A stretch of DNA of 39,563 nt from assembly GCA_038213805.1 (NCBI GenBank), contig JBBQSO010000048.1, positions 1 to 39,563 of the forward strand, written 5' to 3'. The notes below the pieces were generated by a model. It was given only the letters and a program-made list of their open reading frames with translations. It did no database searches and had not been told where the DNA came from. The position numbers and the translations under genes were made by a program. Of the stretch, positions 1-39,563 are shown piece by piece (position 1 is the stretch's first letter; every line of letters starts with the position of its first letter). The stretch is from Planctomycetota bacterium (GTDB lineage: Bacteria > Planctomycetota > UBA11346).

Positions 1-90
1 CTTCGCTTTCCAAGCCTATCGCCTTCAACCCTGCGGCCTGGTCTCACCACCAGCCGCTCAGGGGTGCAAACGCACCCAAGTGAGAACATC

Positions 91-444
91 GTGGAACTCT
101 ACGTAGGCAATCTTCCCTGGTCCGTCACCGATGAGAGCCTCAGCGCCCTCTTCGCCAAGCACGGCGCCGTCACCCGCGCCAAGGTCGTCATGGACCGCGA
201 GAGCGGCCGCAGCCGCGGCTTCGGCTTCGTGACCATGACCAATGATGCCGAAGGCACCGCGGCGATCGCCGCGACCAACGGCAGCCAGCTCGATGGCCGC
301 GCGGTCAACGTGCGCCAGGCTGAAGAGCGCGCCAGCGGCGGCGGCGGCGGCCATGGCGGCGGCGGCGGCGGCGGTGGTGGCTACGGCGGCGGCTCGGGCG
401 GCGGCGGCGGCGGCGGGTACGGCGGTGGCCGTCGCGATCGCTGA
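91..444 (+). CDS. RNA-binding protein (RRM/RNP-1) with Gly-rich C-terminal tail
   Basis: RNP-2 LYVGNL, RNP-1 RGFGFVTM and a poly-Gly/Tyr tail. GTG at 91 is preferred over the ORF-track start at 64. Confidence 0.93.
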   Translation: MELYVGNLPWSVTDESLSALFAKHGAVTRAKVVMDRESGRSRGFGFVTMTNDAEGTAAIAATNGSQLDGRAVNVRQAEERASGGGGGHGGGGGGGGGYGGGSGGGGGGGYGGGRRDR

Positions 445-3018: not shown

Positions 3019-3966
3019 CTAATCGCCCCACTTCCAGGAATCCATGATGGTCTTCATCGGGACCTGCACGTCGATGCTCTCGATGGCGCACGCCATGAGC
3101 AGGTACAGCTGGCCCTTGGTGACCGCGGCCAGGACCATTTGCGGCTGATCCATGGTCTTCGCATCGGTCCTGCCGACGACGCAGTCGACGCCATCGAGTT
3201 TCGCGTACTCGTACTGCACGATGTTCAGCGTGTCGCCGGCGAAACTGAACAGGAGGACGTCCAGCCGGTCGCTGAGCGATCGCGCGACGTCCGCCACGTC
3301 GACTTTGATGATGCCGCTGTGGATCCTGGCGATGGGCGCCAGGATGGCCTTGGTCTTGGCCCGGTCGGGCCTGCCCGAGAACCAGCCACCCGGGATCCCA
3401 TGCTGGAAGCCCGCGAACTTCCCCACGGGGCAACCGGCTTCGCCGCTGATGCCCTCCAGGAACAGCGAGGTGTGCGGCGAGATCCGCCCGGGGGCCACGA
3501 CGCTGGCGAGGAAGGCGTGCCACGCATCGAGGGTGTGACCGTCGGCCTTCCCCGCATGGCAGAAGGTCAAGGTGAACATCTTGCCTCCGACCTCCTTGAA
3601 CGATGCGTTCTCAACCATGACCAGGGTCTTGTCGTCATTTTCCGCGTGGAACGACATCATGGGAATGGCGTTGAACACCTGGTCGTCGACGCTGGTCACC
3701 CGCATGCCGAGCTTGGCCGACGCTTCGGCGAAGCCCTCCATGGCCCCCTTCCGCTCCAGGAGGACATGGTGCGGATTGTCGATGCTGGTGATGGCCAGCA
3801 CCGACCTGCCATCCGCACTCGTGTACTTCTCGGTGTGCGGGTCCGTGCCGGTCACTTCTTTGGCCCATCCCGACGGCGCCGCGTAGTCCAGCACCCCATC
3901 GGCGGCTTCGGCGGCCTGGGCGCCCAGGAGCGCGATCAGCAGGAACTGGAGTGCGTGCGTGCGCAT
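3019..3966 (-). CDS. Secreted hypothetical protein, possibly two PsbP/DcrB-like repeats
   Basis: Start MRTHALQFLLIALLGAQAAEA looks like a signal peptide. The upstream extension to 4410 in the ORF track looks non-coding. Confidence 0.65.
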   Translation of the reverse strand: MRTHALQFLLIALLGAQAAEAADGVLDYAAPSGWAKEVTGTDPHTEKYTSADGRSVLAITSIDNPHHVLLERKGAMEGFAEASAKLGMRVTSVDDQVFNAIPMMSFHAENDDKTLVMVENASFKEVGGKMFTLTFCHAGKADGHTLDAWHAFLASVVAPGRISPHTSLFLEGISGEAGCPVGKFAGFQHGIPGGWFSGRPDRAKTKAILAPIARIHSGIIKVDVADVARSLSDRLDVLLFSFAGDTLNIVQYEYAKLDGVDCVVGRTDAKTMDQPQMVLAAVTKGQLYLLMACAIESIDVQVPMKTIMDSWKWGD

Positions 3967-4216
3967 ATCCCGAGCGATGCGAAGGTGACGAGGACCGCAG
4001 CCGATCCGGCGAGCATGCGCGACGACCGTCATTGGCAATTGGAAAGGGGCGCTGCTCAGCGGCGCTGGAGCTGCGCGAGCAGGGGCTGCGGCTGAGTGGC
4101 GTCGGACGGTCTCAGATGAAGGCAGCGGCTCCGCCGCGCTCTGGACAGCATTTCGCGGAAGGACCAAAACGCGTGAGCACGGCGTCGCGGCATGCCACTT
4201 GTGCGGATAGTCGGAG

Positions 4217-4383
4217 CGCAGATTCACAATGTAAGTGCAACAGCGCCCAAAACCAGAAGCCAGGGCCATCGAGCGGCATGGAATCGGCCCCAGCCAGGAG
4301 GGCGGAGCCCGATGACCTATCAGCAACTGACACTCGAGGAGCGACGCATCATGGTATCCTGAAAAAAACAGAATTTCTTCTGA
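4217..4383 (+). mobile_element. IS30-family remnant: left end plus truncated transposase N-terminus (4312-4362)
   Basis: End-like sequence GATTCACAATGTAAGTGCAACA, then AGGAGG and ATG at 4312 encoding MTYQQLTLEERRIMVS*KKQNFF*, which resembles the IS30 HTH start (YxQLTxEER). Confidence 0.65.
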
Positions 4384-4444
4384 ATGCGCGTCCTTTCCCT
4401 GAATTTCCATAGGCTACCCATGGGAACCGGATATTGATCCGATC

Positions 4445-7400
4445 TTATCCAATGGAGAAATCCGTGGTGGAATTGAGCATATTTTGAGCGCTTGGATCCT
4501 GCGATTCAATCAAAGCATCCCAGGCGTCGAGTGCTCGGCCACGGACCATTGTGTCATTCACTTGCTCCGCCTTTGCGGCCAGTGCAAGCAGGGCATTCAC
4601 GGCCAGCTCGGCATTTGATTCGCGCCGCCACTTCTCCTTTGGTGTCTGAGGATTCAGCGCGATAATATGATTGACCATGGTCAAAACTTCCGCTGATATG
4701 CTGACGATATCGCCCGATTTGCAACAAACCTCAAGCATATCGTGCGGATCATTGCGCGCTGCCGCACTCATTGCCATCCGTGGAAAGAATCCCGGAATGT
4801 CTAATAGGTGATCCGATTTATTCCGGAACATTCGCACCATAGCTTCGCCAACGGCCGCACTCGCGTCATTGGCAAATTTTATAGCGAGCTCTCGCATCCA
4901 TACGGCCGGAAATTTGTCTTCCACTAGGCCATCTGCCAGAGTCGAAGCAGCCGCTTCTCGGGCAGATTCAGAAATGTTCAATGCGACGAGGAGTCTGTCC
5001 TCTGTTATTTGGTCCCACGCGCGGAGAATGAGAGCCGATCGACCACCGCGACGAGAGATGCGATCGTCTCGCCCGATGAGAGCCAGCAGCGCCTCGATGG
5101 CCCGAGAGCGCTGGTCTGCCATCGCTTCGGTGGCGCGAGCCAGCACGAGAAGAGAATGGCCAATGTCATCTTCTGCTGCAACCTGGTCATCCATCGCCAC
5201 CGTCAGCAGCAGTGTATATGCACGATGTGGATCGGCTGACCTCGCGCGAATGGCAAGCATGCCCGCACTCGCACGTCGCCCAATGTCTTCGTGAGCGGTC
5301 AGGTCTCCGGCAATATTGAGACACCGCGGCCGTAGTGATTCGTGCTGCGAGGCAAGGCCTCCCAGTGCTTCGACGGCGCGACACGCGCGCTCGTTCAATC
5401 TGTAATTGATAAGTTCATCGTCTTCCTTCAGTGAAATTCCCGGAACTGCTTTACCGCGAGCGAGATCTTCCAGGCGCTTAACAACTGCCTCGCTCCACTC
5501 GTGCTTGGGCCGCAGGCGAGCCGCCTCGATGAGAGCGGGAGCGAGCTTTTCGCTCGCCAATATCCTAGGAATGAGAAGAATTTTCTCGACCGAGGCATCG
5601 TCAAGCGGCTCCCACGAGCCTCGGGGCGGCGGGCGATCCGGCGGAGTGATTTTGATAAGTCCGTCGATGACCGCTTCCAGCACTGCTTCCGGCAATGGAG
5701 GGACGGAAGCAAGGAACCGCTCCATTCCATCCATGAATTTATTGGGGTTTTTCGGAACAATATACCGCAACTGGCCGATGCGTGTACCCACATCGCCGGC
5801 AAGAACTATGTGCTCAGGACCTTCAGGAAACGTCCGCACTGCCGGAGATGCTGCATTCATCAACTTATCGATCCACTCGGGTACCGTAAGGGACAAAGCG
5901 GTCGAATCGTCGATATCGGATCTGACCCAACCCCCTCGGAATTGGATGCCATCTTCGTCCCGTGGCTTTTTATTTCCGAATCGCAATGTCAACGCCGCGA
6001 AGAGCTCGGTGGTTGTCGATGACCAGCGTCGCTGATCCATAGACGCGAGAAGCCGGAAGCAGATTTCGTTTGCCGCATCCAGGTCTTCGGTGGTTGGCGG
6101 ATTCGGACTCGTCGGGAGCGATCCCGGATGCGTCGGGTAGGCTGCCACCCACCGCTCAAGCGCGTGATGCATGGTGTCATCAAGGCGCGGGCAAATGGCA
6201 CGCAAGAAAAGTCGCGCATACTTGCTGTTTACAAAGTTTTGTCCTACCCCCAGCCGGCTGAGGGACGGGTCTGCCAAGAACCATGCGGCAGCCGCTGACA
6301 GGACACCGCTGGGAGCGGCATCGGCATCCAGCGCCGCTCCGACACGCAGCAAGAGCCAGTCATCAAGCGGGCGATGAGCCTCGGGGAGTTCAGACACAAG
6401 ATTTTCCCAGGTGATCTCAGCGGTGCCGAGAGCATGGGCCAGCACCTGGCTCAAGATGTCGACTACGACCACGATCACTGCGTCACTGCGCTTAGAGCCG
6501 TGCACGGTGCGATGGATTTGCCACAAGTGTTCCACATCGAACCGCGCCCAACGCGCGCGCAGCAATCGCCAGGTCTGCAGGCCAGTAATCCGAATGGAGT
6601 GAGGGAGGTTTTCCGGCCAACCGTGAAGCCAATCTGGAGGAGATCTTTCTATCAACTCCTCATTTTCCGCTAGGTCTATATGGTGGCTCAGGAGTCTGAG
6701 CGCGCGCATGGCATTAGCTTCCAGCAACTTTTCCCACTTGATATAATGATCGCGCAGGTGCTTGCCATCCGCATAGTGCTTCACGCGCAGCTCGAAAAGG
6801 CTTTCGCTGTCCTCGGAAGGATCCTGCAGGAAGACGATATCCGCCTGGGTAAGAACCGTGGGATCGTTCTGAAGCCATGCTCCGAGACAGGCAGCAACCA
6901 GATCTCCACGACTTCTCCCAACCGCAGCCAAGAGTCGGAGAAGGGAATTGCGTACTTCAGGACGTGCCGTTGGCCAAGCCTGCGTGATCCAAGGCTGAAG
7001 CGCGTCCATCCAGGCAACGCGATTATAGATGACCATCGCGAAAACCACGCCTTGATACTGCGGTTCCTCAAGCCACCCGACTATCTGGCGCACCCAACTC
7101 GGATCTGGCGCGTCGATCGCGGCGATTCCGAGCAGCATGGAACGCTTGAGCATAGGACGGATATCGCCACTCCTCAGGATATCGTTGCACAACGCGGAAC
7201 CCTGACGGCCGAGGTTGGCGAAAAGCAGTACTGCGAGACGGAGTCGGCGCGCATGATGGAGGCTTTGCTCTTGGCGGCTTCCGAGCCGGGCACGCAGATC
7301 AGCGAAGGACTGGACCTCGCTCCACTGGCGCGCAAGCCAGACATCGACCAGCACCTGGTGGAACGGACGAACCTGATCGCGTCCATCGACGAAGAGCACT

Positions 7401-8974
7401 CCGGAGGTGATAAGCGCATCTACCACGGATGACGGCTGTAGCCGGAGCCGATCGAGAGAGAGAAGGCCCGTACGCTCGACGCCATTCACGAGGGTATCCA
7501 TTATCTGGTCAGCCACGGAGCCATGAGGCTCTCTGAGACGTTCCCACCAACGCACGACAAGATCGAGGATGGTGCGCGTACGGGAATAATTCCCACCACG
7601 TCTCACCAGTTGCGCGAGCAAATGCAAGACAATGGGCCGGCGGGTGAGCGGCACCAGATCGGGATGCAACGTCGTGATGGCAATGCCGATTTCGCTCAGG
7701 ACCGCTGTGGCCTGGGATTCGGTAAGCACGCCGATCGGAACCTTCAAATAACGATCCGCAGAATCGGGGCACAGAACACGCCGTAGCTGCGTGTCGTGAT
7801 CCACGTCGATCGTGCGACACCCGACTATGACGACGATGTTGAGGGCCCTGGCGAGCTGGATCCACATCATGATCGGGATGAGGTGGTGTTGGGCGCGCTC
7901 CCCGGCGAGGGTCAGTTGGTCTAATTGGTCAATGATCAGACAGGCTCGGTATTCACCGGCGTAGGCCCTCAGCGAGCGGACAGGGTCACTGGATGATGTC
8001 CAGCTTGCGGCTTCTTCGGCACGCATGACGAGGAGCGGTATCTTGGCATCTTTGAGGCGCGAGATGGTTTGAAGGATTACCTCGGTCTTTCCGACGCCTG
8101 CAGGACCATGCACGATGATGGTTTGCGCACGTTCCGTGTCGCGCGCTGCATTCGCTACGACCTCGGATTCTGGCCTGGAAATGGACGTCAGGAGTCGCAC
8201 CGCACCAACAGACTGTAGAAACGCCGCAACCGTCGCATCCAAGACGACACCCATGCGGTCATTGGAAACGCGCGCGAGTAGGGGCACGTGGGATACTGCG
8301 AGGTGGTGGCGGACCATCTCGGTGGTCAGCGTCGTGGAAAGCGAGCTCCGAGCTAGGGCGAGAAGGGAGCTGATGAGCAAATCGGGGGCTGATGAAAGCG
8401 CGGTTGCGAGCACACGAATCTGCTCTTGCAGCGTCCTATGATCGACGACTTGGGCGCGCATGCGGCGTACGAGTCCATACGCCTCGACGACGTCTTCGGG
8501 GCGATTGGGATTCAAGCCGAACCCGTCAAAAACTTGCGCAATAAATCCTCCAACCTTCCCATCCGTTGCTGCCCATTGAGCTGGGCTTTCGACAGCATGC
8601 GCGGTCGCGATGACCGCTGTCAGCGATGGCGCGCTTTCATTGGAAGAAAAACGGAATTCCCCGGCAACCTTCTCGTCGCTCCTGGTGAGTTGCACCCGTG
8701 CGTAGGCAAGGACGCTCCTGCTTTTCGTCCCATTTTTCAACTGACGCTGCTTTTTGAGATCGGCCATGGTCCATGGCTCGGTGCTCTTGGTCTTATACTG
8801 GATAGCAATCCGCTCACGGCCGCGCGTAATCCAACAATCGACGCCCAGTCCATCCTGAAGCGACCCTTCCCAGAGAAGCGATTGTTCTTGTTCGTCGGCA
8901 ACCAGAAGGAGATGCCAGATGACACCGTCCTCCTCGTACCAGTTGCCAAGCTTATCGAAGATTCCTCCACTCAT
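4445..8974 (-). CDS. Large STAND/NACHT-like NTPase with N-terminal PD-(D/E)xK-type nuclease and long helical C-terminus (Avs/NLR-like defence candidate)
   Basis: N-terminal GGIFDKLGNWYE...GVDCW...AIQYK; Walker A GPAGVGKT (8084-8107); Walker B LIIDQLD; sensor VGCRT; RRPIVL; RPFHQVLVD. GGAGGA RBS lies before ATG 8974. GC is lower than the flanks. Confidence 0.8.
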   Translation of the reverse strand: MSGGIFDKLGNWYEEDGVIWHLLLVADEQEQSLLWEGSLQDGLGVDCWITRGRERIAIQYKTKSTEPWTMADLKKQRQLKNGTKSRSVLAYARVQLTRSDEKVAGEFRFSSNESAPSLTAVIATAHAVESPAQWAATDGKVGGFIAQVFDGFGLNPNRPEDVVEAYGLVRRMRAQVVDHRTLQEQIRVLATALSSAPDLLISSLLALARSSLSTTLTTEMVRHHLAVSHVPLLARVSNDRMGVVLDATVAAFLQSVGAVRLLTSISRPESEVVANAARDTERAQTIIVHGPAGVGKTEVILQTISRLKDAKIPLLVMRAEEAASWTSSSDPVRSLRAYAGEYRACLIIDQLDQLTLAGERAQHHLIPIMMWIQLARALNIVVIVGCRTIDVDHDTQLRRVLCPDSADRYLKVPIGVLTESQATAVLSEIGIAITTLHPDLVPLTRRPIVLHLLAQLVRRGGNYSRTRTILDLVVRWWERLREPHGSVADQIMDTLVNGVERTGLLSLDRLRLQPSSVVDALITSGVLFVDGRDQVRPFHQVLVDVWLARQWSEVQSFADLRARLGSRQEQSLHHARRLRLAVLLFANLGRQGSALCNDILRSGDIRPMLKRSMLLGIAAIDAPDPSWVRQIVGWLEEPQYQGVVFAMVIYNRVAWMDALQPWITQAWPTARPEVRNSLLRLLAAVGRSRGDLVAACLGAWLQNDPTVLTQADIVFLQDPSEDSESLFELRVKHYADGKHLRDHYIKWEKLLEANAMRALRLLSHHIDLAENEELIERSPPDWLHGWPENLPHSIRITGLQTWRLLRARWARFDVEHLWQIHRTVHGSKRSDAVIVVVVDILSQVLAHALGTAEITWENLVSELPEAHRPLDDWLLLRVGAALDADAAPSGVLSAAAAWFLADPSLSRLGVGQNFVNSKYARLFLRAICPRLDDTMHHALERWVAAYPTHPGSLPTSPNPPTTEDLDAANEICFRLLASMDQRRWSSTTTELFAALTLRFGNKKPRDEDGIQFRGGWVRSDIDDSTALSLTVPEWIDKLMNAASPAVRTFPEGPEHIVLAGDVGTRIGQLRYIVPKNPNKFMDGMERFLASVPPLPEAVLEAVIDGLIKITPPDRPPPRGSWEPLDDASVEKILLIPRILASEKLAPALIEAARLRPKHEWSEAVVKRLEDLARGKAVPGISLKEDDELINYRLNERACRAVEALGGLASQHESLRPRCLNIAGDLTAHEDIGRRASAGMLAIRARSADPHRAYTLLLTVAMDDQVAAEDDIGHSLLVLARATEAMADQRSRAIEALLALIGRDDRISRRGGRSALILRAWDQITEDRLLVALNISESAREAAASTLADGLVEDKFPAVWMRELAIKFANDASAAVGEAMVRMFRNKSDHLLDIPGFFPRMAMSAAARNDPHDMLEVCCKSGDIVSISAEVLTMVNHIIALNPQTPKEKWRRESNAELAVNALLALAAKAEQVNDTMVRGRALDAWDALIESQDPSAQNMLNSTTDFSIG

Positions 8975-9054
8975 GGGATATCCTCCAGGGCCGTAGCGAT
9001 ACCGTGCCAAGGAATGAGACGATCGACACCGAGGGGGCGTACGTCGTCACCTCC

Positions 9055-10158
9055 TTAGATGACGAATCCAGGTGCGATGGCGGATCCGCCCTGTCCCGCG
9101 GCGATACCTCGCAGTTTCCGGATGGGTCCGGCATCGCTCCTATCTGGCGTCAATGAAGCTTTGATCTCCACTGGTATCAAGCCGCTTCCGCTCTCCAGGA
9201 CCACATCGATTTCAAGGCCATCGTTTGACCGCCACACCCAGAGGTTGTCGCGCCGTCCGCGATGGAGGCGAGTCTTGAGAATCTCCGATACACACCAGGT
9301 CTCAACGAGTGCGCCCCAATTGGGATGTGTGGTGACCTGTTGGAGGTCACTGATGTGCAGAAGTCGACAGGCGAGTCCGGAGTCGAGGAAGTAGAGTTTC
9401 GGTGCTTTGGTAATGCGCTTACCGAAGTTGCGATCATGAGGACGCAACAACCGGATGACGTAGCACGCCTCGAGGACGCCCAGCCACGCTGAAACCGTGT
9501 TGTGCTGAATGCCGATGGCTTGGCCGAGGCCGGACAGGTTGACCGCCTGCCCCGTGTAGGTGGCACAGAGTTGGATGAACCGACTGAACGCCAGGCGATC
9601 CCGGATTTCCAAAAGCTGTCGGACATCGCGGTCGATGAATGCGGCAATATACTGATCCAGCCAGCCATTGGGCTCGGGCGCAGTTTCATCGTAGAGACGG
9701 GGATACCCGCCGCGAAAGACCGCTTCGGCGAGGGTTCGTGGGCGACGGGTACTGGTGGTTAATTCGGCATGGGAAAATGGCAGCAACTCGAGGCGGATGA
9801 CACGTCCGGCCAGCGATTGAGCGAGGTTGCGTCCCAATTGGAGCTGATGCGATCCCGTTAGGATCCAACGTCCGCGTGAGCGATCGGCATCAACCCGGGC
9901 CTGGATGTAGGACATGAGCTCGGGAACGTGTTGCACTTCATCGAGAATCGCACCGTCTGGAAAGCGCGCGAGGAATTGCACAGGGTCTTGCGTCGCCTCT
10001 GCCCGCTCAAATGGATGTTCCAGGTTGACGTAGCGCAAATCCGGTGCAGCCGCCTCCGCGAGGACGGTTTTGCCGGATTGGCGCGGACCGGTAATGGCGA
10101 TTACCGGATAGGAGGCTCGGTGCCTGGGAACGAGGGGGGTGAGGGTGCGTGGAAGCAT
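9055..10158 (-). CDS. AAA+ ATPase with DUF4143 domain (AAA_14-DUF4143), probably truncated by a premature stop; original end 8971
   Basis: ITGPRQSGKT, ILDEVQ, ILTGS, GGYP, KAPKLYFLDSGL, GALVET, EIDVV...PVEIKAS. The frame continues after TAA as GGDD...LIPW. Confidence 0.9.
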   Translation of the reverse strand: MLPRTLTPLVPRHRASYPVIAITGPRQSGKTVLAEAAAPDLRYVNLEHPFERAEATQDPVQFLARFPDGAILDEVQHVPELMSYIQARVDADRSRGRWILTGSHQLQLGRNLAQSLAGRVIRLELLPFSHAELTTSTRRPRTLAEAVFRGGYPRLYDETAPEPNGWLDQYIAAFIDRDVRQLLEIRDRLAFSRFIQLCATYTGQAVNLSGLGQAIGIQHNTVSAWLGVLEACYVIRLLRPHDRNFGKRITKAPKLYFLDSGLACRLLHISDLQQVTTHPNWGALVETWCVSEILKTRLHRGRRDNLWVWRSNDGLEIDVVLESGSGLIPVEIKASLTPDRSDAGPIRKLRGIAAGQGGSAIAPGFVI

Positions 10159-10164
10159 CTCGGC

Positions 10165-10197
10165 AATATGGTAATCCTATTGACAATTTGCATAGGA
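10165..10197 (-). promoter_or_regulatory. Putative promoter with overlapping inverted repeat upstream of the AAA/DUF4143 gene
   Basis: Minus strand reads ATGCAA-17 nt-CATATT a few nt before the ATG. Inverted repeat TCCTAT-N11-ATAGGA at 10175-10197. Confidence 0.4.
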
Positions 10198-10567
10198 AAT
10201 CCCTGAAAAGTCGTAACTTATTGCAATTACTACTTTAATGTAATTCTAAATTAGCGCATATGCTTTTGCGGCGAGGTAAAGGGCTTTGTGGAACTGAACC
10301 ATTGGCTTGGCGACGCGCCGCTCAACCTGCCTGACGGCGGGCAAGCCAGCAATCTCTTATCCGAATCTGTGGATACCTAGCGGTGGGCGCCCTCCCGGTA
10401 CCTAAAATGGACGCCATCGCACGCTCAGAGCCAACTTGCCACCGCTCTCCGAGGCCATCCCTCGGCGAACATTCCAGGCATGACCCGCGCGCCGTGAGAT
10501 ACCCAATGATTCGCACCTGAGATGCCTCGGGCGATTACCCAGGCTGGGCGAATATGATCACAACGCC

Positions 10568-10589
10568 TGGGGAACACTTTGGGGAACAC
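10568..10589. repeat. Tandem direct repeat TGGGGAACAC x2 (possible integrase arm-type sites)
   Basis: Exact 10-mers at 10568-10577 and 10580-10589, about 60 bp beyond the tRNA 3' end. Confidence 0.5.
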
Positions 10590-10608
10590 ACCGTCAACCC
10601 TAGAAACG

Positions 10609-10641
10609 AAAAAACCCCTGTAAGCCATTGGCCTACAGGGG
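10609..10641 (-). terminator. Hairpin/terminator downstream of tRNA-Val
   Basis: CCCCTGTA-AGCCATTGGCC-TACAGGGG stem, followed on the minus strand by T6. Confidence 0.75.
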
Positions 10642-10649
10642 CTTATCTT

Positions 10650-10726
10650 TGGTACCCGATAGTGGACTTGAACCACTGACCCCCACCATGTCAAGGTGGT
10701 GCTCTAGCCAACTGAGCTAATCGAGT
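10650..10726 (-). tRNA. tRNA-Val(GAC)
   Basis: Reverse complement folds as ACTCGAT-TA-GCTC AGTTGGCTA GAGC-A-CCACC TTGACAT GGTGG-GGGTC-AGTGG TTCAAGT CCACT-ATCGGGT-A-CCA. Confidence 0.97.
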
Positions 10727-10746
10727 ATATCGGCGATGCGGCGCAG

Positions 10747-10774
10747 AGGATGGCGTGTCGAGCGCCGCCGTCAA
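10747..10774 (-). promoter_or_regulatory. Putative sigma70 promoter of tRNA-Val
   Basis: TTGACG-16 nt-CATCCT followed by a GC-rich discriminator, about 20 nt upstream of the tRNA. Confidence 0.55.
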
Positions 10775-10915
10775 GGCGTTCGCGCAGCTGGCGGGGCGAA
10801 AGCTATAAAATGTTGATGTAACACATGTTAATAGATGGGCCAGCTTCCAGCTCGTGGCTCCAAGGGCGCGCGTTTGCAGGCGCGCATTCCAGCAGCGGGG
10901 CGGACGCGACGCGCC

Positions 10916-11368
10916 TCACCCCGCCTTCACCAGCACCACCCCACCGAGCAGCATCCCCGCACCCGCCAGCTTCGCGAGACTGAACTCGTGCACCGGCAGG
11001 CCCATCAGACCCCAGTGGTCGATCAGCAGCGTGCCGAGGAGCTGGCCCGCGACCACACAGGCGATCATGGTCGCGGCGCCCAGGCGGGGGGCGACGATGA
11101 TAACCATCGACACGAACAGCGCGCCCATCAGGCCGCCCAACCAAGACCACCACGGCGCCTGGGCGAGGCCGCTCAGCGGAGGCAGCGGCACGCGCATGCC
11201 GGCGCAGGTGATGAGCAGCAGCACCAGACCGACCACGAACGACGCCACCGCTGCCCACAGGGTGTGACCGGTCCACAGCTTGAGCTGGGTGTTCATGCCG
11301 GTCTGCATGGCGAGCAGCACGCCGCCAATGAGCGAGGCCGCGAGGCAGAGGACGATCTTGGGATCCAT
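10916..11368 (-). CDS. DMT family transporter (YdcZ/DUF606-like)
   Basis: QTGMNTQL, SFVVG, PWWSWLGGLMGA, GQLLGTLLIDHWG; hydrophobic throughout. Confidence 0.9.
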   Translation of the reverse strand: MDPKIVLCLAASLIGGVLLAMQTGMNTQLKLWTGHTLWAAVASFVVGLVLLLITCAGMRVPLPPLSGLAQAPWWSWLGGLMGALFVSMVIIVAPRLGAATMIACVVAGQLLGTLLIDHWGLMGLPVHEFSLAKLAGAGMLLGGVVLVKAG

Positions 11369-11734
11369 CAAGGCACCGGAGGGAAAGAAGTGGACGGCAG
11401 GAGGGCCAGAGCACGGGCGACAGGGAGAGCAGGAGAACGGAGACCGGCGACTACGGACAACCTCCATGCAGGCCCGGTTCCTTCAAGAGCCATAGGCCAG
11501 ATTCCGCCCTCACGCTGAGGCCCTGCACCGGTAAATCGCGTGTTTCCGCACCATGCGGGCCACTTCGCGCAGCGCAATTCACCGCTCGCCCTCCTTCCCT
11601 CGTGCTTCCCCTGCCTTCTCTTCCGCCCTGCCTCCTTCCCGCGTCCTCCAAGGTTGAGCAGACTTCCACGCCACGTGGCACCTGTCCTTGCCCTGCCGTC
11701 ACCGCCCGGTGTCATCCGCGTCCCGGAGGCCGCC

Positions 11735-12163
11735 ATGTCCCATCCCGTCCAGAATTATGCCAACCACCGCCGGATCCCGCCAGTGCACCTCGCGGCAGGC
11801 GTGATCCTGCTGATCGAGCTGGGGTGGCATTGCTGGCACATCTTCCACGGCGACAACGTGCACTTCCTGGGCGCGGCGGCCAACCTGGCGGTGCTCAGCA
11901 TCTGGCACGCCTCGCGGCGCAACGCGCAGATCATGCAGGATCGCATCATCCGCCTGGAGATGCAGGTGCGCCTGGCACGCCTGCTGCCGGTGGAACGCCA
12001 CGCCGAAATCGCGCGCCTGACCCTGCCGCAGCTGGTCGGCCTGCGCTTTGCCGGCGACACGGAGCTGCCCGCACTGGTCCAGAAGACGCTGGCCGAGAAT
12101 CTCGGCAGCAACGCGATCAAACGCCTGGTCACCGACTGGCAGCCCGACTGGCTGCGCGTGTGA
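11735..12163 (+). CDS. DUF6526-like small membrane protein
   Basis: QNYANHRR...QDRIIRLEM...QLVGLRFAGDTEL...WQPDWLRV; GGAGG RBS. Confidence 0.75.
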   Translation: MSHPVQNYANHRRIPPVHLAAGVILLIELGWHCWHIFHGDNVHFLGAAANLAVLSIWHASRRNAQIMQDRIIRLEMQVRLARLLPVERHAEIARLTLPQLVGLRFAGDTELPALVQKTLAENLGSNAIKRLVTDWQPDWLRV

Positions 12164-12236
12164 GCGGCGTCGACGGCACAGCGGCGGATCGCACATGACC
12201 AAGGGACTGAAGGCCGAAGGCCGCGGGAGAGCCGGA

Positions 12237-14084
12237 ATGGCCGACGACAAGGACAAGAAGAAACGCCCGATCCGCTGGTCGGCCGCCTGGGGCGAGGCGC
12301 GCGTGCTGCTCGCGGCCCACCGCGGGCGGCTGGCCTTCGGGCTCGGAGTGCTGGTCATCGACCGCGCGCTGGGCTTCGCCCTGCCGGCCAGTTCGAAGGT
12401 GCTGATGGACTATGTGGTCCGCGACCACCGCAATGATTTGCTGCTGCCGCTCGCCATCGGCGTCGGCGCCGCGGCGGTGCTGGGCGCGGGCACCTCGTAC
12501 GCGCTCTCGCAGGTGCTGGGGGTGGCCGCGCAGAAGGCCATCACCGACATGCGCAAGACCGTCCAGGCCCACATCCTGCGCCTGCCGGTGCGCTACTTCG
12601 ACGAGCACCAGTCCGGAGCGCTGATCTCGCGCATCATGACCGACGCGGAAGGCGTGCGCAATCTGGTCGGCAATGGCATCGTGCTGCTGGTCGGCGGCCT
12701 GTTCTCGGCACTGGTCGCCACCAGCGTGCTGTTCTACCTGAACTGGCACCTGACGGCTTTCATCCTGGTCGCCCTGGCGGTGTTCGGCGGCTGCATGGCC
12801 ATGGCCTTCACCCGCCTGCGCCCGCTGTTCCGCGAACGCGGCAAGATCAACGCGGAAGTCACCGCTCGCCTGGCCGAGACCCTCGGCGGCATCCGCATCG
12901 TCAAGGCCTACACCGCCGAGCCGCGCGAGCGCACGGTGTTCGCCAGCGGCGTCGACCGGCTGTTCGCCAACGTGCGCAACTCGATCACCGGGGTGTCCGC
13001 GGTCACCGCGGTCTCGACCATGATCATCGGCGCGATCGGCGTGGTGATGATCGTCTTCGGCGGCAACGCCATGCTCGCCGGCACCATGTCCACCGGCGAC
13101 TTCATCTTCTACCTGGCGCTGGTCGCGATGGTCGCCGCGCCGATGATCCAAATCACCTCGATCGGCACGCAGATCACCGAGGCCTTCGCCGGTCTCGACC
13201 GCATCAGCGAGATCCGCCAGCTCGCCACCGAGGACGCTGGCGACGAGGCGCGCGCGCCCTGTCCGACGGTGGAGGGGACGATCGCGTTCCGCGAGGTCGG
13301 CTTCTCGTACCAGGAAGGCGTGCCGGTTCTCAAGGGCGTCTCGTTCGACACCCCGGCGGGAACCACCACCGCGCTGGTCGGCTCGAGCGGTTCGGGCAAG
13401 AGCACGCTGGTCAGCCTGATCATGGCCTTCAACCGCGCGCAGTCCGGCAGCGTGACCATCGACGGGCGCGAGCTGGCGGGGCTGCGCCTGCGCGACTACC
13501 GCAGCAAACTGGGCGTGGTCATGCAGGACAACTTCCTGTTTGACGGCTCGGTCGCCGAGAACATCAGCTTCGGGAAGCCCGAGGCGACGCGCGACGAGGT
13601 CCTGGCAGCGGCGCGCATCGCCAACTGCGACGAGTTCGTACGCGGCTTCGAAAAGGGCTACGACACCGTGGTCGGCGAGCGCGGCGTGCGTTTGTCCGGC
13701 GGCCAGCGGCAGCGCATCGCCATCGCGCGCGCCCTGCTCGCCGACCCGCGCATCCTGATCCTGGACGAGGCGACCTCAGCGCTGGACAGCGAGAGCGAGG
13801 CGGCCATCCAGGCCGGCCTGCAGGCGCTGCGCAAGGGCCGCACTACCTTCGTCATCGCCCACCGCCTGTCGACCATCCGCGAGGCCGACCAGATCCTGGT
13901 GCTGGAGGCCGGGGCGATCGTCGAGCGCGGCACCCACGAGCAGCTGATGGCCAACGAGGGGCGCTACCGCCAGCTCCACGACCGCCAATACCGCTTTGAG
14001 CGGGAGCGCTACCTCAACCCGGGAGAAGAGCCTGCGGCAGAGGGACGTGGAGCGCGACACGGCCCGACGTCGCAGCAAGCGTGA
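12237..14084 (+). CDS. ABC transporter fused permease/ATP-binding protein (MsbA-like exporter)
   Basis: TM domain plus GSSGSGKS, LSGGQRQR, ILILDEATS, IAHRLST. Alternative start at 12195. Confidence 0.95.
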   Translation: MADDKDKKKRPIRWSAAWGEARVLLAAHRGRLAFGLGVLVIDRALGFALPASSKVLMDYVVRDHRNDLLLPLAIGVGAAAVLGAGTSYALSQVLGVAAQKAITDMRKTVQAHILRLPVRYFDEHQSGALISRIMTDAEGVRNLVGNGIVLLVGGLFSALVATSVLFYLNWHLTAFILVALAVFGGCMAMAFTRLRPLFRERGKINAEVTARLAETLGGIRIVKAYTAEPRERTVFASGVDRLFANVRNSITGVSAVTAVSTMIIGAIGVVMIVFGGNAMLAGTMSTGDFIFYLALVAMVAAPMIQITSIGTQITEAFAGLDRISEIRQLATEDAGDEARAPCPTVEGTIAFREVGFSYQEGVPVLKGVSFDTPAGTTTALVGSSGSGKSTLVSLIMAFNRAQSGSVTIDGRELAGLRLRDYRSKLGVVMQDNFLFDGSVAENISFGKPEATRDEVLAAARIANCDEFVRGFEKGYDTVVGERGVRLSGGQRQRIAIARALLADPRILILDEATSALDSESEAAIQAGLQALRKGRTTFVIAHRLSTIREADQILVLEAGAIVERGTHEQLMANEGRYRQLHDRQYRFERERYLNPGEEPAAEGRGARHGPTSQQA

Positions 14085-14193
14085 AACCGGACGCGTCGCA
14101 CTGACCTTGACCCCGGCCCGGGCATCCATGCCTTGTGCGGGCTGTCGCAGACGCCAAGAATGGGCGTTAAGGTCCACCCCCGGGAGCACCACC

Positions 14194-15180
14194 ATGCGCC
14201 ATTTGCACGCCCGCCCCCTGGTCCTGAGCACCGCGGTGGCCCTCGCCACCCTGCTGATCGGCGGCCGGGCCGAGGCGCTGGTGCCCCTCGAAAACGTCAC
14301 CTGGGCCGACGGCATCGCCCAGCCCACCCCGGTCGGCGTGGCCCGGCGCGTCCAACTCTACTTCATCATCGATTGCAGCGAAGAGCCCGGCAAGCAGCTC
14401 TACTACGGCGCGCAGGGCAACATCAAGCAGCCGCGCTGGGAGAACAAATACGAGATTCTCCATTTCCTGGTCAGCAGCGGCGGCGGCACCATGCCGGCGC
14501 GCAACGACGCCGACACCGAATGGGCCGACCGCGGCACCGACTCCACCACCGGCCTGCTGCGCGCCATCGCCGGCGATGCCATCGGGGCGTACATCCTGGT
14601 CGACGGCAGCGGCCGCATCGCCGAGGTCGGGCGTCTGAACGTCGATGACGCGAACAAGAAGGCCGAGAAGCTTTTCAAGGGCACCCAACCGCTGGTCGAC
14701 GACGAATCCCAGCTGCCGCTGGCGACCAAGCCGCTGTTCAAGTGGCTCAAGCTCGGCGACACCCACAGCTACCAGAAGTCGCTCGGCAAGTACGGGCCCG
14801 CGGGCATGCAGTTCCAGCAATTCGTCGCCAAGGGCACCACGCGCCTGCTCGAATCGGACGCCGCACTGCTCAGCGATCCCGCGACCACTCCCGACGCCAA
14901 GCTGATCGCCCTGCAGCGCGCGACCGCGGTCGCCCAGGAGGCGCCGCCAAGCAAGTCATTCACCGCCGTGCTCAAGGGTCTCAAGACCGACAAGACCCTC
15001 AAGCATGAGCAGGAGGCCTGGGAGGTGCTCAAGCAGTACCTAGCCGAGGCGCGCAAGACCCCGCTCAAGAAGATCAGCGACAAGCAGCACGAGTGGTTCC
15101 CGCTCTTCGACACGAAGTACAAGGGCACCTACGCCGCCGAGATCGTCGACAAGATCAAGAGCGCGTCGCGCTACGAGTGA
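14194..15180 (+). CDS. Secreted hypothetical protein
   Basis: Signal-peptide-like start MRHLHARPLVLSTAVALATLLIGGRAEA; GGGAG RBS; GC3-biased codons. Confidence 0.75.
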   Translation: MRHLHARPLVLSTAVALATLLIGGRAEALVPLENVTWADGIAQPTPVGVARRVQLYFIIDCSEEPGKQLYYGAQGNIKQPRWENKYEILHFLVSSGGGTMPARNDADTEWADRGTDSTTGLLRAIAGDAIGAYILVDGSGRIAEVGRLNVDDANKKAEKLFKGTQPLVDDESQLPLATKPLFKWLKLGDTHSYQKSLGKYGPAGMQFQQFVAKGTTRLLESDAALLSDPATTPDAKLIALQRATAVAQEAPPSKSFTAVLKGLKTDKTLKHEQEAWEVLKQYLAEARKTPLKKISDKQHEWFPLFDTKYKGTYAAEIVDKIKSASRYE

Positions 15181-21150: not shown

Positions 21151-21603
21151 ATGCCGCAGTCACTCGCTCGTTTGTATGTCCACTTGGTCTTCAGCACCAA
21201 GCATCGACAGCCGCACATCATCGACAATGTCCGCGAGCGGCTCCATGGGTACATGAGCAAGGTGCTCGACAATCTCGCGTGCCCGGTGCTCAGCATCAAT
21301 TCGGTCTCCGATCATGTGCACATCTTCTTCGAGCTGAGCCGGACCATTTCCACCAGCCAGGCAGTTGAGGCGGTCAAGAAGTCCTCTTCCAAATGGATGA
21401 AGGAACAACCTGGCGGCAACGGGGAGTTTTCTTGGCAGTCAGGTTACGGTGCATTCTCGACTTCGGAGTCCCAGGTCCAGACGGTGCGCGCCTACATCGC
21501 TCGACAGCAGGAACACCATGCCGCTACCACCTTCCAGGATGAGTTCCGATCCATGCTCGGACGCCATCATCTCCCGTATGACGAACGCTACATCTGGGGC
21601 TGA
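21151..21603 (+). mobile_element. tnpA: IS200/IS605-superfamily Y1 (HUH) transposase, REP-associated tyrosine transposase (RAYT) type
   Basis: HLVFSTKHR, HUH motif DHVHI, FSWQSGYGAFS, catalytic YIARQQEHH; no tnpB; flanked by inverted palindromic arms. Confidence 0.9.
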
Positions 21604-37624: not shown

Positions 37625-37742
37625 CGCCAGGCGCTGGCGGCCCCTGCATCCAGGGCAATGCCCTGCTCGGTACCCACAACGCACAGTGGGGTCCGAAGAG
37701 AGGCGCGGAATCTGAAAAAAAAATGGTGGGGATCCGGTAGGA

Positions 37743-37979
37743 ACGAGCTCGCGGAGCGGGCGAAAGCAATGAGGCTAGGGCGTGAGCCCTGGAAATCGGA
37801 AGCACGGATGTCAGAGCCCGCGGAGCGGGCGATACCATTTCATGCGGGGGAACCTCGCAGGGCCAAAATTGCTGTGCGGGAAATCTTGTCGCCCGCTCCG
37901 TGGGCTTGCACCCTCTTCCGTCGCGGGTCCCAGGGCTCACGCCCTAGCCTCATTGCTTTCGCCTGCTCCGCTGGCTCGT
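37743..37979. repeat. REPIN-like inverted-repeat element without a transposase gene
   Basis: 37759-37792 is a perfect inverted match of 37930-37963. Inner pair 37815-37832 / 37889-37906. Confidence 0.85.
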
Positions 37980-38067
37980 CGATCCCCTGCCGACGACATG
38001 CGCGATTCCATGGGGCATCCCATTTCGGAAGTTGTGGGTAGTGCCTAGCGCCTACTGCACGTGTTCC

Positions 38068-38168: not shown

Positions 38169-38282
38169 TCGAGAGGAACCCCGTTCGCGGCCGGTAGAGC
38201 CTGCGCTCCCGGCCGCCATGACCAGATCACCACACCATCCTCATCCCGACGAGCGTGGCCCATGGCCGCGCCAGGAAATCCC

Positions 38283-39563
38283 ATGACGTCCCCTGCCATC
38301 CCCGATCCCAACCGCGTCCTGATCTTCGATACCACCCTGCGCGACGGCGAGCAGTCGCCCGGCGCGTCGATGAACCTGCCCGAAAAGCTGGAGATCGCCC
38401 GCACCCTCGAAGCGCTGGGTGTCGACATCATCGAGGCCGGCTTCCCGGTCGCCTCGCCGGACGACTTCGCCGCCGTCAAGGCGATCGCCGAGCAGACCAC
38501 GCGGGCGCGCATCTGCGCGTTGGCCCGCGCGCTGACCGGGGACATCGACCGCGCCGCCGAAGCGGTGCGCCCGGCCGGCGCGCGCGCGCGCATCCACATC
38601 TTCCTGGCGACCAGCGCCATCCACCGTCAGTTCAAGCTCAACAAGGTCAAGGAGGAGATCGTCAAGCAGGCGCGCGACAGCGTGGCCTACGCGCGCACAC
38701 TGTGCGACGACATCGAGTTCTCGCCCGAGGACGCCTCGCGCACCGAGCCCGAATTCCTCGCCGAGGTGGTGCAGGCGGTGATCGCGGCTGGCGCGCGCAC
38801 CGTCAATATCCCCGACACCGTCGGCTACGCCTACCCGAACGACTACGCCGACCTCATCACCTACCTGCGCGCGCACGTCGCGAACATCGCTCAGGCGGTG
38901 ATCTCGGTGCACTGCCACAACGACCTGGGCCTGGCGGTCGCCAACTCGCTGGCCGCGGTGCGCGCCGGCGCGCGCCAGGTCGAATGCACCATCAACGGCA
39001 TCGGCGAGCGCGCCGGTAACTGCTCGCTCGAAGAGGTGGTCATGGCCATGCGCGTGCGCAAGGACATGTTCGCCGGCATTACCACCGGCATCACCTCCAG
39101 CCACCTCTACGGCGCTTCGCGCCTGGTGCAGTCGATCACCGGGCTGACCGTACAGCGCAACAAGGCGGTCGTCGGCGACAACGCCTTCGCCCACGAGTCC
39201 GGCATCCACCAGCACGGCATGATGAAGAACCCCGAGTGCTACGAGATCATGACGCCGCAGTCGGTCGGCGTCCCCGACACCAACCTGGTGCTGGGCAAGC
39301 ACTCCGGTCGCGCCGCGCTGGGCGCGCGGTTGACCAAGCTGGGCATGCCGGTCGGTGACGACGACCTGGGCAAGGTCTTCGAGGCCTTCAAGCGCCTCGC
39401 CGACCGCAAGAAGGAGATCTACGACGGCGATCTCATCGCCCTGATCGAGGAAGTCGTGCGCGGCACCACGCTGAGCGTGTGGAAGTTGGATTACCTCCAT
39501 ACTTCGGCCGGCACCGAGGCCATCGCCACCGCCACCGTGCGCCTGAGCAAGGACGGCACCACC
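38283..39563 (+). CDS. leuA: 2-isopropylmalate synthase (partial, runs off window end)
   Basis: Translated by hand: [79 protein letters not shown]. Missing from the ORF track because there is no stop in the window. Confidence 0.97.

Follow-up and report, generated by a model that had tools for sequence, protein, structure and literature searches.

The closest described relative of the system analysed here is SeAvs7 of Salmonella enterica (Lee et al., Nature 2026, PMC13581612; bioRxiv 10.64898/2026.01.04.697583; PDB 9N00, 9N01 and 9YIX), which forms tetramers and degrades DNA on sensing the major capsid protein of a phage. As a one-gene system, SeAvs7 relies on EF-Tu borrowed from the host and works alone in E. 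coli; its K292, D358 and R395 make ATP/Mg contacts and H545 is the winged-helix histidine (PMC13581612). The bilobed Avs7 sensor is shared with the SIR2 protein Dsr1, and SIR2 (Dsr1-like) fusions are a hallmark of it (PMC13581612). Lee et al. assembled a set of 3,272 Avs7 sequences, and neither their text nor seven of their supplements mention a DUF4143 ATPase partner. The terminase- and portal-sensing proteins Avs3 and Avs4, with Cap4 or Mrr heads, follow the same tripartite logic (PMC13581612). A precedent for an Avs sensor working with additional effector genes is Avs2-trypsin-MBL, although that system, as described in the accessible part of its report (bioRxiv 10.64898/2026.08.25.746987), has other partner proteins, another sensor and a terminase trigger. 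AAA_14 + DUF4143 ATPases are catalogued separately as the defence candidate PDC-S01 (COG1373).

We analysed a gene in a Planctomycetota contig (JBBQSO010000048.1), the whole 39,563-nucleotide stretch of which is called the window. Its product is a predicted tripartite antiviral STAND protein with a Cap4-like head, an NTPase and a putative helical tail, resembling SeAvs7 in length (1509 against 1523 amino acids) and in its order of Cap4-type nuclease, STAND NTPase and large sensor. Full-length relatives share 28–50% identity with it. Across an alignment of 49 family members (18–50% identity), G10, E14, E36, G44 and Q59 of the nuclease head and G290, G293, G295, K296, D349, Q350, D352, R387, H539 and Q540 of the NTPase and winged-helix domain are invariant, and at least 90% of members retain K8, D46, K61 and C386. 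Because they persist at such divergence, the motifs are no chance strings; every one that the first-pass annotation had quoted lies where it was placed and is conserved in relatives, and the gene is intact.

Table. Features of the locus, in window coordinates.
Feature	Coordinates	Strand	Remarks
Avs7-like antiviral STAND gene	4445..8974	-	1509 codons + stop; stop-free frame, full-length relatives, family profile matches SeAvs7
Open frame containing the gene	4445..9010	-	ATG at 8974 is the start used by relatives, giving 1509 amino acids
Cap4-like PD-(D/E)xK nuclease head	8255..8974	-	Residues 1 to ~240 (E14, D46, Q59, K61)
Head motif GGIFDKLGNWYE	8933..8968	-	Residues 3–14
GVDCW	8831..8845	-	Contains D46
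QYK	8792..8800	-	Residues 59–61; gives D-x12-QxK
STAND NTPase + winged-helix domain	7175..8254	-	Residues ~241–600 (K296/T297, D349, R387, H539)
GPAGVGKT	8084..8107	-	Residues 290–297
IIDQLD	7919..7936	-	Residues 347–352
GCRT	7811..7822	-	Residues 385–388
PFHQ	7355..7366	-	Residues 537–540
C-terminal sensor region	4448..7174	-	Residues 601–1509; no named family
GGAGGA Shine-Dalgarno-like hexamer	8981..8986	-	7 nt ahead of sensor-gene ATG; read from sequence
Partner gene as read in the window, AAA_14 + DUF4143 ATPase	9055..10158	-	367 codons ending TAA
In-frame TAA in partner gene	9055..9057	-	Tyr in 9/10 relatives, Asn in one
Continuation of partner frame	8971..9054	-	27 sense codons, then TGA; GGDDVRPLGVDRLIPWHGIATALEDIP followed by the stop matches relatives' C-termini
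Low-GC foreign segment with only the two genes	4200..10650	.	GC 0.52–0.62, flanks 0.64–0.70
Terminator-like hairpin	10612..10644	-	15 pairs + T run; just after tRNA, upstream of operon
tRNA-Val (GAC) bounding variable site	10650..10726	-	ARAGORN; Rfam tRNA 62.8 bits

The N terminus had been described as Mrr/Cap4-like, and profile alignment agrees: from residue 46 the head aligns collinearly with the experimentally validated Cap4 domain of SeAvs7, with D46 and Q59-x-K61 in register with its catalytic residues. A language-model search pointed to PF14130 Cap4_nuclease in 16 of 30 named clusters (score 0.91), and the Pfam model itself matched neither the window's protein at E ≤ 0.1 nor any of 27 clade members at E ≤ 0.01. 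The adjoining NTPase has K296/T297 as Walker A and D349 as Walker B, and matches Pfam AAA at 9.8e-6 and nSTAND5 at 1.6e-4 (21.9 bits, under the cut-off of 34). Among the 27 clade members, nSTAND5 matched 23 at E ≤ 0.01 (best 3.6e-9), NACHT 10 and nSTAND1 seven. Those nSTAND5 matches, together with the collinearity of the Walker A, Walker B, sensor arginine and winged-helix histidine with SeAvs7 K292, D358, R395 and H545, point to the STAND class that the annotation had proposed; H539-Q540 falls on the SeAvs7 ‘GHQ’ stretch holding His545.

Comparison of family profiles with the PDB placed the protein more closely. SeAvs7 (9n00/9n01/9yix) was the only match of the 49-member profile (E 3.3e-58), with 172 bits over head and NTPase (residues 49–640 against 46–640, the catalytic and nucleotide-binding positions being in register over 46–640) and 30 bits over a collinear C-terminal stretch (991–1509 against 995–1519). 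A profile of the gene's own clade (27 sequences) matched at E 1.5e-39 (46–553 against 46–573), with 8.9 bits for the sensor C-lobe, and a sister-clade profile at E 1.7e-47. SeAvs7 lay beyond the reach of the single window protein, a 9-sequence profile and two single relatives. As judged from these profiles, the gene forms part of a separate clade within the superfamily of Salmonella Avs7, the match being strong for nuclease and NTPase and weak for the sensor, which is only marginally similar. Avs3 and Avs4 chains are present in the PDB, and no such chain was matched by the family profiles at E ≤ 1. Identity with Avs4 was rejected: NCBIfam NF041815 scored 16.8 bits, over the P-loop only, against a cut-off of 1500, and the Avs4 model matched 0 of 20 relatives.

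Searches of Pfam, NCBIfam and PADLOC assigned the tail (residues ~600–1509) to no family at E ≤ 0.1. The first-pass annotation's claim of an unrecognised sensor is nevertheless weaker than it first seemed, because the family belongs to the Avs7 superfamily (Nature 2026) and is thus no longer uncharted. The tail had also been called rich in Leu, Ala and Trp. Compared with nine host ORFs of the window, this is correct for Leu (12.2% against 9.9%) and Trp (2.8% against 1.4%) and not for Ala (12.9% against 12.7%). Its helical nature is suggested only indirectly: 10 of 20 relatives have HEAT-type Pfam matches in the part that aligns with it, and family profiles gave weak matches to HEAT proteins. 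PADLOC PDC-M54A partially matched 15 of the 20 relatives scanned (9e-7 to 2e-28); the window's protein had neither a PDC-M54A nor a HEAT-type Pfam match at E ≤ 0.1.

These observations bear on what the tail may sense. The sensor-only profile found no SeAvs7 match in the PDB at E ≤ 1, residues 640–990 had no SeAvs7 match with the 49-member profile, and a sequence search with a sensor-only profile, limited by word matching, retrieved only ~1500-residue STAND proteins or pieces of them, with no SIR2 (Dsr1-like) fusion among them. Because the sensor link is thin and no SIR2 fusions were found, a capsid trigger for the clade is a guess. With the same architecture and output, the tail could well sense something else, either another conserved phage protein or a state generated by, or reported through, the DUF4143 ATPase, so that the Avs7 trigger would not be transferable; we give this a substantial chance, if somewhat below even. 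The sensor is the least SeAvs7-like part of the protein, and in the 2026 study 13 different phage proteins are recognised by different Avs families whose helical tails are similar. Against this, SeAvs7 is the only solved relative and its C-terminal match is collinear, and conservation within the clade is no lower in the tail than in the enzymatic domains (majority-residue fraction 0.42–0.46 against 0.43–0.48), which would suit a conserved ligand like a capsid fold. The earlier guess that the ligand could differ from terminase and portal fits, since SeAvs7, the closest relative to have been characterised, responds to the major capsid protein.

The annotation's NLR-like architecture holds, but the gene is not stand-alone: it lies second in a conserved two-gene operon, which the annotation had missed. 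The upstream gene matches Pfam DUF4143 (2.8e-46), AAA_14 (5e-25) and PADLOC PDC-S01 (PDLC04790, 1.1e-98), and its product bears an intact D-x12-ExK nuclease-type motif, DUF4143 being classed, in the accessible part of the literature, as a PD-(D/E)xK domain. By tblastn, all 11 near-clade loci that could be assessed have a homologue immediately upstream in the same orientation, with 46–77% identity for the partner against 26–52% for the sensor protein. In all ten other loci the partner stop overlaps the sensor start, as ATGA or GTGA in nine and TGATG in one, and the pairs occur across different genomic neighbourhoods and bacterial families. The sister clade, whose ~1550-residue proteins (for example P0046 and P0086), with their partial PDC-M54A matches, are homologous over their full length including the tail (1477 columns aligned, hhalign E 1e-164) and share the head motifs, differs in that none of its four assessable loci has a DUF4143 partner within the flanks. 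On a 62-row tree, a branch with support of 100 separates the near clade from the rest, the eight partner-positive loci placed are spread over the near clade, and one change of state suffices to explain partner presence and absence. On this genomic evidence, the near-clade sensor and its AAA_14/DUF4143 ATPase form a predicted system of two genes where one is usual, unlike SeAvs7 with its host EF-Tu.

The PDC-S01 ATPase-nuclease and the Avs might instead each be a single-gene defence, acting independently and travelling together as a mini defence island. PDC-S01 is very common and, in the accessible parts of its sources, is catalogued as a stand-alone candidate without validated function, whereas the subfamily here is coupled to an Avs-type sensor; of 8000 candidates scored, at least 7481 fall in the partner family at E ≤ 1e-20, and SeAvs7 is autonomous. 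We consider independence improbable given the fixed order, orientation and start/stop overlap across varied neighbourhoods and families and the single origin on the tree; the window's genome holds only two DUF4143 genes, and a 4-nt overlap kept over 26–52% protein divergence is unusual for independent neighbours. In another study, as far as its accessible part reports, a representative of PDC-S01 failed to protect against T4, T5 or T7.

The gene thus probably encodes the larger component of an anti-phage module of two genes, a DUF4143 ATPase plus a Cap4/STAND/sensor protein with Avs7-like action. We infer the trigger, the oligomerisation, the DNase activity and the contact between the two proteins; that the large protein would bind a phage protein, oligomerise and switch on a DNase, as first proposed, is drawn from homology with SeAvs7. 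By that homology, the sensor protein would most likely idle as an autoinhibited ADP-bound monomer until its tail binds a conserved phage protein, the foremost candidate being the HK97-fold major capsid protein. The Cap4 heads would then be joined through ATP-dependent oligomerisation, degrade DNA and abort infection. The partner ATPase and the sensor would share one message, with their translation coupled, and the ATPase would act with the sensor as cofactor, regulator or second effector. More tentatively, and in our view less likely than not, the ATPase may be an obligate subunit, either a dedicated structural cofactor in the role that borrowed EF-Tu has for SeAvs7 or a second ATP-driven nuclease switched on by the activated sensor; because SeAvs7 works alone in E. 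coli, the superfamily as a whole does not require such a partner. An obligate subunit would make this the first two-component Avs with an AAA+ partner and offer a first functional foothold for PDC-S01/COG1373, among the commonest uncharacterised defence-candidate families in prokaryotes.

In the window, the in-frame TAA (9057–9055) cuts the partner 28 codons short, despite a conserved 27-codon continuation whose TGA (8973–8971) overlaps the sensor ATG (8974–8972) as ATGA. The module could accordingly be decaying here, the premature stop killing operon function or uncoupling translation of the sensor, a reading that we regard as rather unlikely. The Logan contig of run X1 (depth 9), a separate assembly, has G at 9055 on the forward strand, that is TAC (Tyr), and contigs of run X2 break at the site, suggesting that the TAA reflects polymorphism or a faulty assembly consensus; X1 is possibly the source sample, in which case its TAC would lend no independent support. 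All 1509 codons of the sensor frame are intact, and its ATG has its own GGAGGA upstream.

The pair is inserted in a low-GC variable site next to tRNA-Val and is of foreign origin. GC3 is 0.62 for the sensor gene and 0.66 for the partner gene, against 0.80–0.91 for host genes; conservation with same-genus genomes resumes at 10640, and the same flanks in two of these genomes enclose other DNA of 2.1–2.5 kb. The sensor gene is patchily distributed: among other genomes, 7 of 400 from the phylum carry it, as do 3 of 47 from the order and 1 of 10 from the genus. A non-immune role, for example as a regulator or housekeeping NTPase, is conceivable in that defence and non-defence STAND clades are interspersed (PMC13581612), but we think it very improbable for a patchily distributed low-GC insertion whose product has a nuclease head with conserved catalytic residues. 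Further relatives carry the death-type heads Mrr_cat_2, TIR and PNP_UDP_1, and one relative adjoins Hachiman genes.

We assigned the start of the large sensor gene from the starts of its relatives, to the ATG at 8974 of a slightly longer open frame, giving a product of 1,509 residues (Table). Every motif quoted in the first-pass annotation was found in this protein where it had been placed. Across a 49-member family alignment (18–50% identity), G10, E14, E36, G44, Q59, the Walker A glycines, K296, D349, Q350, D352, R387, H539 and Q540 are invariant, and K8, D46, K61 and C386 are conserved in at least 90% of members, indicating that these motifs reflect functional constraint rather than chance. 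Family databases recognized little of the protein: Pfam returned AAA (9.8e-6) and nSTAND5 (1.6e-4, under its cut-off), PADLOC gave no match below 1e-3, and residues 1–270 and 400–1509 were left uncovered by Pfam, NCBIfam and PADLOC. Avs4 identity was ruled out, as the NCBIfam Avs4 model scored 16.8 bits against a cut-off of 1,500 and matched 0 of 20 sampled relatives. In a language-model search with residues 1–240, 16 of 30 named matches were Cap4_nuclease clusters (score 0.91), which we treat as a lead only.

Table. Features of the sensor protein and of the surrounding DNA
Feature	Position	Strand	Remarks
Sensor gene frame	4445..9010	-	Open reading frame
GGIFDKLGNWYE	sensor residues 3-14		Motif read in the sequence
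D46	sensor residue 46		Motif of the nuclease head
QYK	sensor residues 59-61		
GPAGVGKT	sensor residues 290-297		Walker A
IIDQLD	sensor residues 347-352		
GCRT	sensor residues 385-388		
PFHQ	sensor residues 537-540		
Partner gene	9055..10158	-	
tRNA-Val(GAC)	10650-10726		Low-GC segment abuts the tRNA and its terminator-like hairpin
ORF	3019-4410	-	Signal-peptide-like stretch; no Pfam family; host-like GC
IS200-like Y1 transposase	21151-21603	+	Pfam Y1_Tnp 1.8e-26; GC3 0.74; local GC dip
RRM_1 RNA-recognition-motif protein	1-444	+	2.2e-20; cut by the left window edge

The structural match came from profile searches. Searched against the PDB, the 49-sequence profile retrieved 9n00, 9n01 and 9yix (1,523 aa) far above all other entries (E 3.3e-58), with 172 bits over 49–640 versus 46–640 and 30 bits over 991–1509 versus 995–1519. 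As reported in PMC13581612, these entries are the apo and complexed forms of Salmonella enterica Avs7 (SeAvs7), in which a Cap4 nuclease at the N-terminus is followed by a STAND NTPase and by a bilobed TPR sensor shared with Dsr1. The same report describes how this sensor wraps around the HK97-fold major capsid protein, whose binding relieves autoinhibition. In the presence of ATP, SeAvs7 forms an asymmetric tetramer that includes EF-Tu; dsDNA is degraded by the tetrameric Cap4 domains, and defence is lost on nuclease inactivation. SeAvs7 was also reached by a profile of the window protein's own branch (the near clade; E 1.5e-39, 46–553 versus 46–573, the tail contributing just 8.9 bits) and by one of its sister clade of relatives of about 1,550 aa (E 1.7e-47). 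It was not found in PDB searches with the single sensor sequence, a 9-sequence profile or two single relatives.

Profile alignments place D46 and QxK, read by the first-pass annotation as an Mrr/Cap4-like signature, in register with the SeAvs7 Cap4 nuclease residues, and its NTPase and WHD-like motifs (Walker A, D349, R387 and H539) likewise align with their SeAvs7 counterparts. Together with the profile matches, this register indicates that the head and NTPase are homologous to a validated Cap4–STAND pair, and, judged by its sequence, the sensor protein belongs to the Avs7 superfamily as one of its divergent members. The mechanism first proposed for it, in which recognition of a phage protein leads to oligomerization and activates a DNase, would by analogy be the one demonstrated in SeAvs7. 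For the tail, homology to the SeAvs7 capsid sensor is plausible but thin. A 10-sequence profile of the sensor region did not reach SeAvs7 at E ≤ 1 and gave just weak HEAT or designed-repeat matches (E 0.004–0.02), a language-model search with the tail returned unnamed and HEAT clusters (0.89–0.92), and self-comparison of the tail profile revealed no significant internal repeats (best pair 1080–1240 versus 1240–1400, probability 29%, E 6e-4). Because similarity to the SeAvs7 sensor is confined to the C-lobe, the major capsid protein can be put forward only as a best guess at the trigger, and a somewhat doubtful one.

When 5.8 billion proteins were searched through a word index, the sensor protein matched 11 others, 8 of them with at least 78% query coverage at 28–50% identity. 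An exhaustive search with residues 1–600 returned 1,042 clusters at E ≤ 1e-3, of which 412 reached 1e-10 and 33 reached 1e-30; most are 1,450–1,580 aa long and align from their first residues. Further scans yielded little: the first metagenome scan gave 176 pattern matches with no relative among them, the first scan of genome contigs, in which P-loop patterns were saturated, gave 4 weak loci, and viral contigs gave one 13-residue match that is not meaningful. Among 20 sampled relatives, 15 partially matched the PADLOC candidate PDC-M54A and 10 carried HEAT-type Pfam matches at about residues 1200–1450. A FastTree phylogeny of 62 sequences separated the near clade (35 rows, window included) from the sister clade (27 rows) with support of 100, and the profiles of the two clades align across 1,477 columns (E 1e-164), indicating that the C-terminal region is homologous in both. 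Three relatives at greater distance within the phylum (L066, 7963–12687; L067, 4279–8766; L068, 5781–10658) have the same chassis but bear Mrr_cat_2, TIR and PNP_UDP_1 heads in place of the Cap4-like one, as expected from the modularity of Avs proteins; 16 relatives align only from about residue 150, and their N-terminal heads match no Pfam family. At another sister-clade locus (L019), the relative adjoins genes for HamA (3.1e-48) and a DEAD-box helicase (9830–12438), which form a Hachiman-type pair.

Given that single-gene Avs sensors are already well mapped, the large gene alone would extend the Avs7 superfamily in an ordinary, if divergent, way; what is new, and worth testing, is an invariant and apparently translationally coupled partner. 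Directly upstream of the sensor gene and on the same strand lies a gene for an AAA_14+DUF4143 ATPase (Pfam AAA_14 5e-25, DUF4143 2.8e-46; PADLOC PDC-S01 1.1e-98), one of only two DUF4143 genes in the window's genome. DUF4143 is catalogued among PD-(D/E)xK domains, and a D318...E331-x-K333 pattern is invariant in 4 of 4 aligned partners; the partner's Walker A motif reads GPRQSGKT, and the PDB yielded no relative of the partner protein. Using tblastn with both proteins against the retrievable loci, we found the two genes arranged in the same order and on the same strand at all 11 near-clade loci that retain the upstream side (window, L006, L016, L017, L018, L020, L027, L028, L029, L030 and L031, of which L030 and L031 are near-identical and both counted); L025 and L032, whose contig ends cut the upstream side, were left out. 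These loci have unrelated surroundings and span at least 3 bacterial families plus metagenomes, and the partners are 46–77% identical, versus 26–52% for the sensor proteins. In contrast, no partner gene lies up to 3–8 kb upstream at any of the four assessable sister-clade loci (L019, L066, L067 and L068; L001 and L069 are cut and were left out). A single change of state on the 62-sequence tree accounts for this distribution. Matching contig sizes hint that six further sensor and partner pairs in the protein database each share a contig. At L029, roughly 2.5 kb beyond the sensor gene on its downstream side, another DUF4143 ATPase gene begins (13945–14220; 50% identical over 92 residues) at the edge of the retrieved sequence, possibly a second tandem module.

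In the 10 other near-clade loci, the partner frame extends 27–28 codons past the point at which the window's partner stops, and its TGA overlaps the sensor start (ATGA or GTGA in 9, TGATG in 1), a sequence signature of translational coupling. The window's partner ends at TAA (9057–9055, minus strand), a codon that is Tyr in 9 of 10 relatives and Asn in the other, and beyond it 27 conserved codons lead to a TGA overlapping the sensor ATG. We compared contigs of three public sequencing runs with window 8700–10300. The one contig that spans the stop site, at depth 9 in run X1 (which may be the source sample), carries G at 9055 (plus strand), giving TAC, and contigs of run X2 break at 9056 and 8918; the stop is thus a variant or a consensus error rather than evidence of a settled pseudogene.

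The coupled DUF4143 ATPase distinguishes the near clade from described Avs systems, and may serve as a cofactor, a regulator or a second nuclease. Neither a DUF4143 partner nor a two-gene arrangement is mentioned in the text and smaller supplements of the Avs7 paper (PMC13581612), and the portions of the literature on DUF4143, COG1373 and PDC-M54/PDC-S01 that we searched held no report of the pairing. According to one survey, PDC-S01 ranks as the fourth most common prokaryotic defence candidate; the single representative tested in another study did not protect against T4, T5 or T7. Because this clade hard-wires PDC-S01 to a sensor whose logic is known, it opens a direct route to the role of this ATPase-nuclease, and the pair raises the question of whether some Avs receptors need a dedicated partner rather than a borrowed host factor.

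The pair sits in a low-GC island, with GC falling from 0.64–0.70 in the flanks to 0.52–0.62 between about 4200 and 10650, and GC3 is 0.62 and 0.66 in the two genes versus 0.80–0.91 in 23 other window ORFs, four exceptions aside. Two same-genus genomes retain both flanks (the window as far as 2958, and again from 10640 onwards), but the intervening DNA is unrelated and measures 2.5 and 2.1 kb, versus 7.7 kb in the window. Because the ORF at 3019–4410 is also absent from this site in both genomes, the variable region exceeds the low-GC segment. We found no integrase and no attachment-site or flanking repeats in the island, no sigma-70-like promoter in 3900–10800 (0 sites versus 2.5 expected) and no Rfam match besides the tRNA. 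Among other sampled genomes, the sensor gene is present in 7 of 400 at the level of the phylum, 3 of 47 within the order and 1 of 10 within the genus. At the right window end, ORFs 37658–38041 (+) and 38241–39500 (-) have GC3 as low as the defence pair (0.63 and 0.66) and no Pfam family, and are possibly a second foreign segment.
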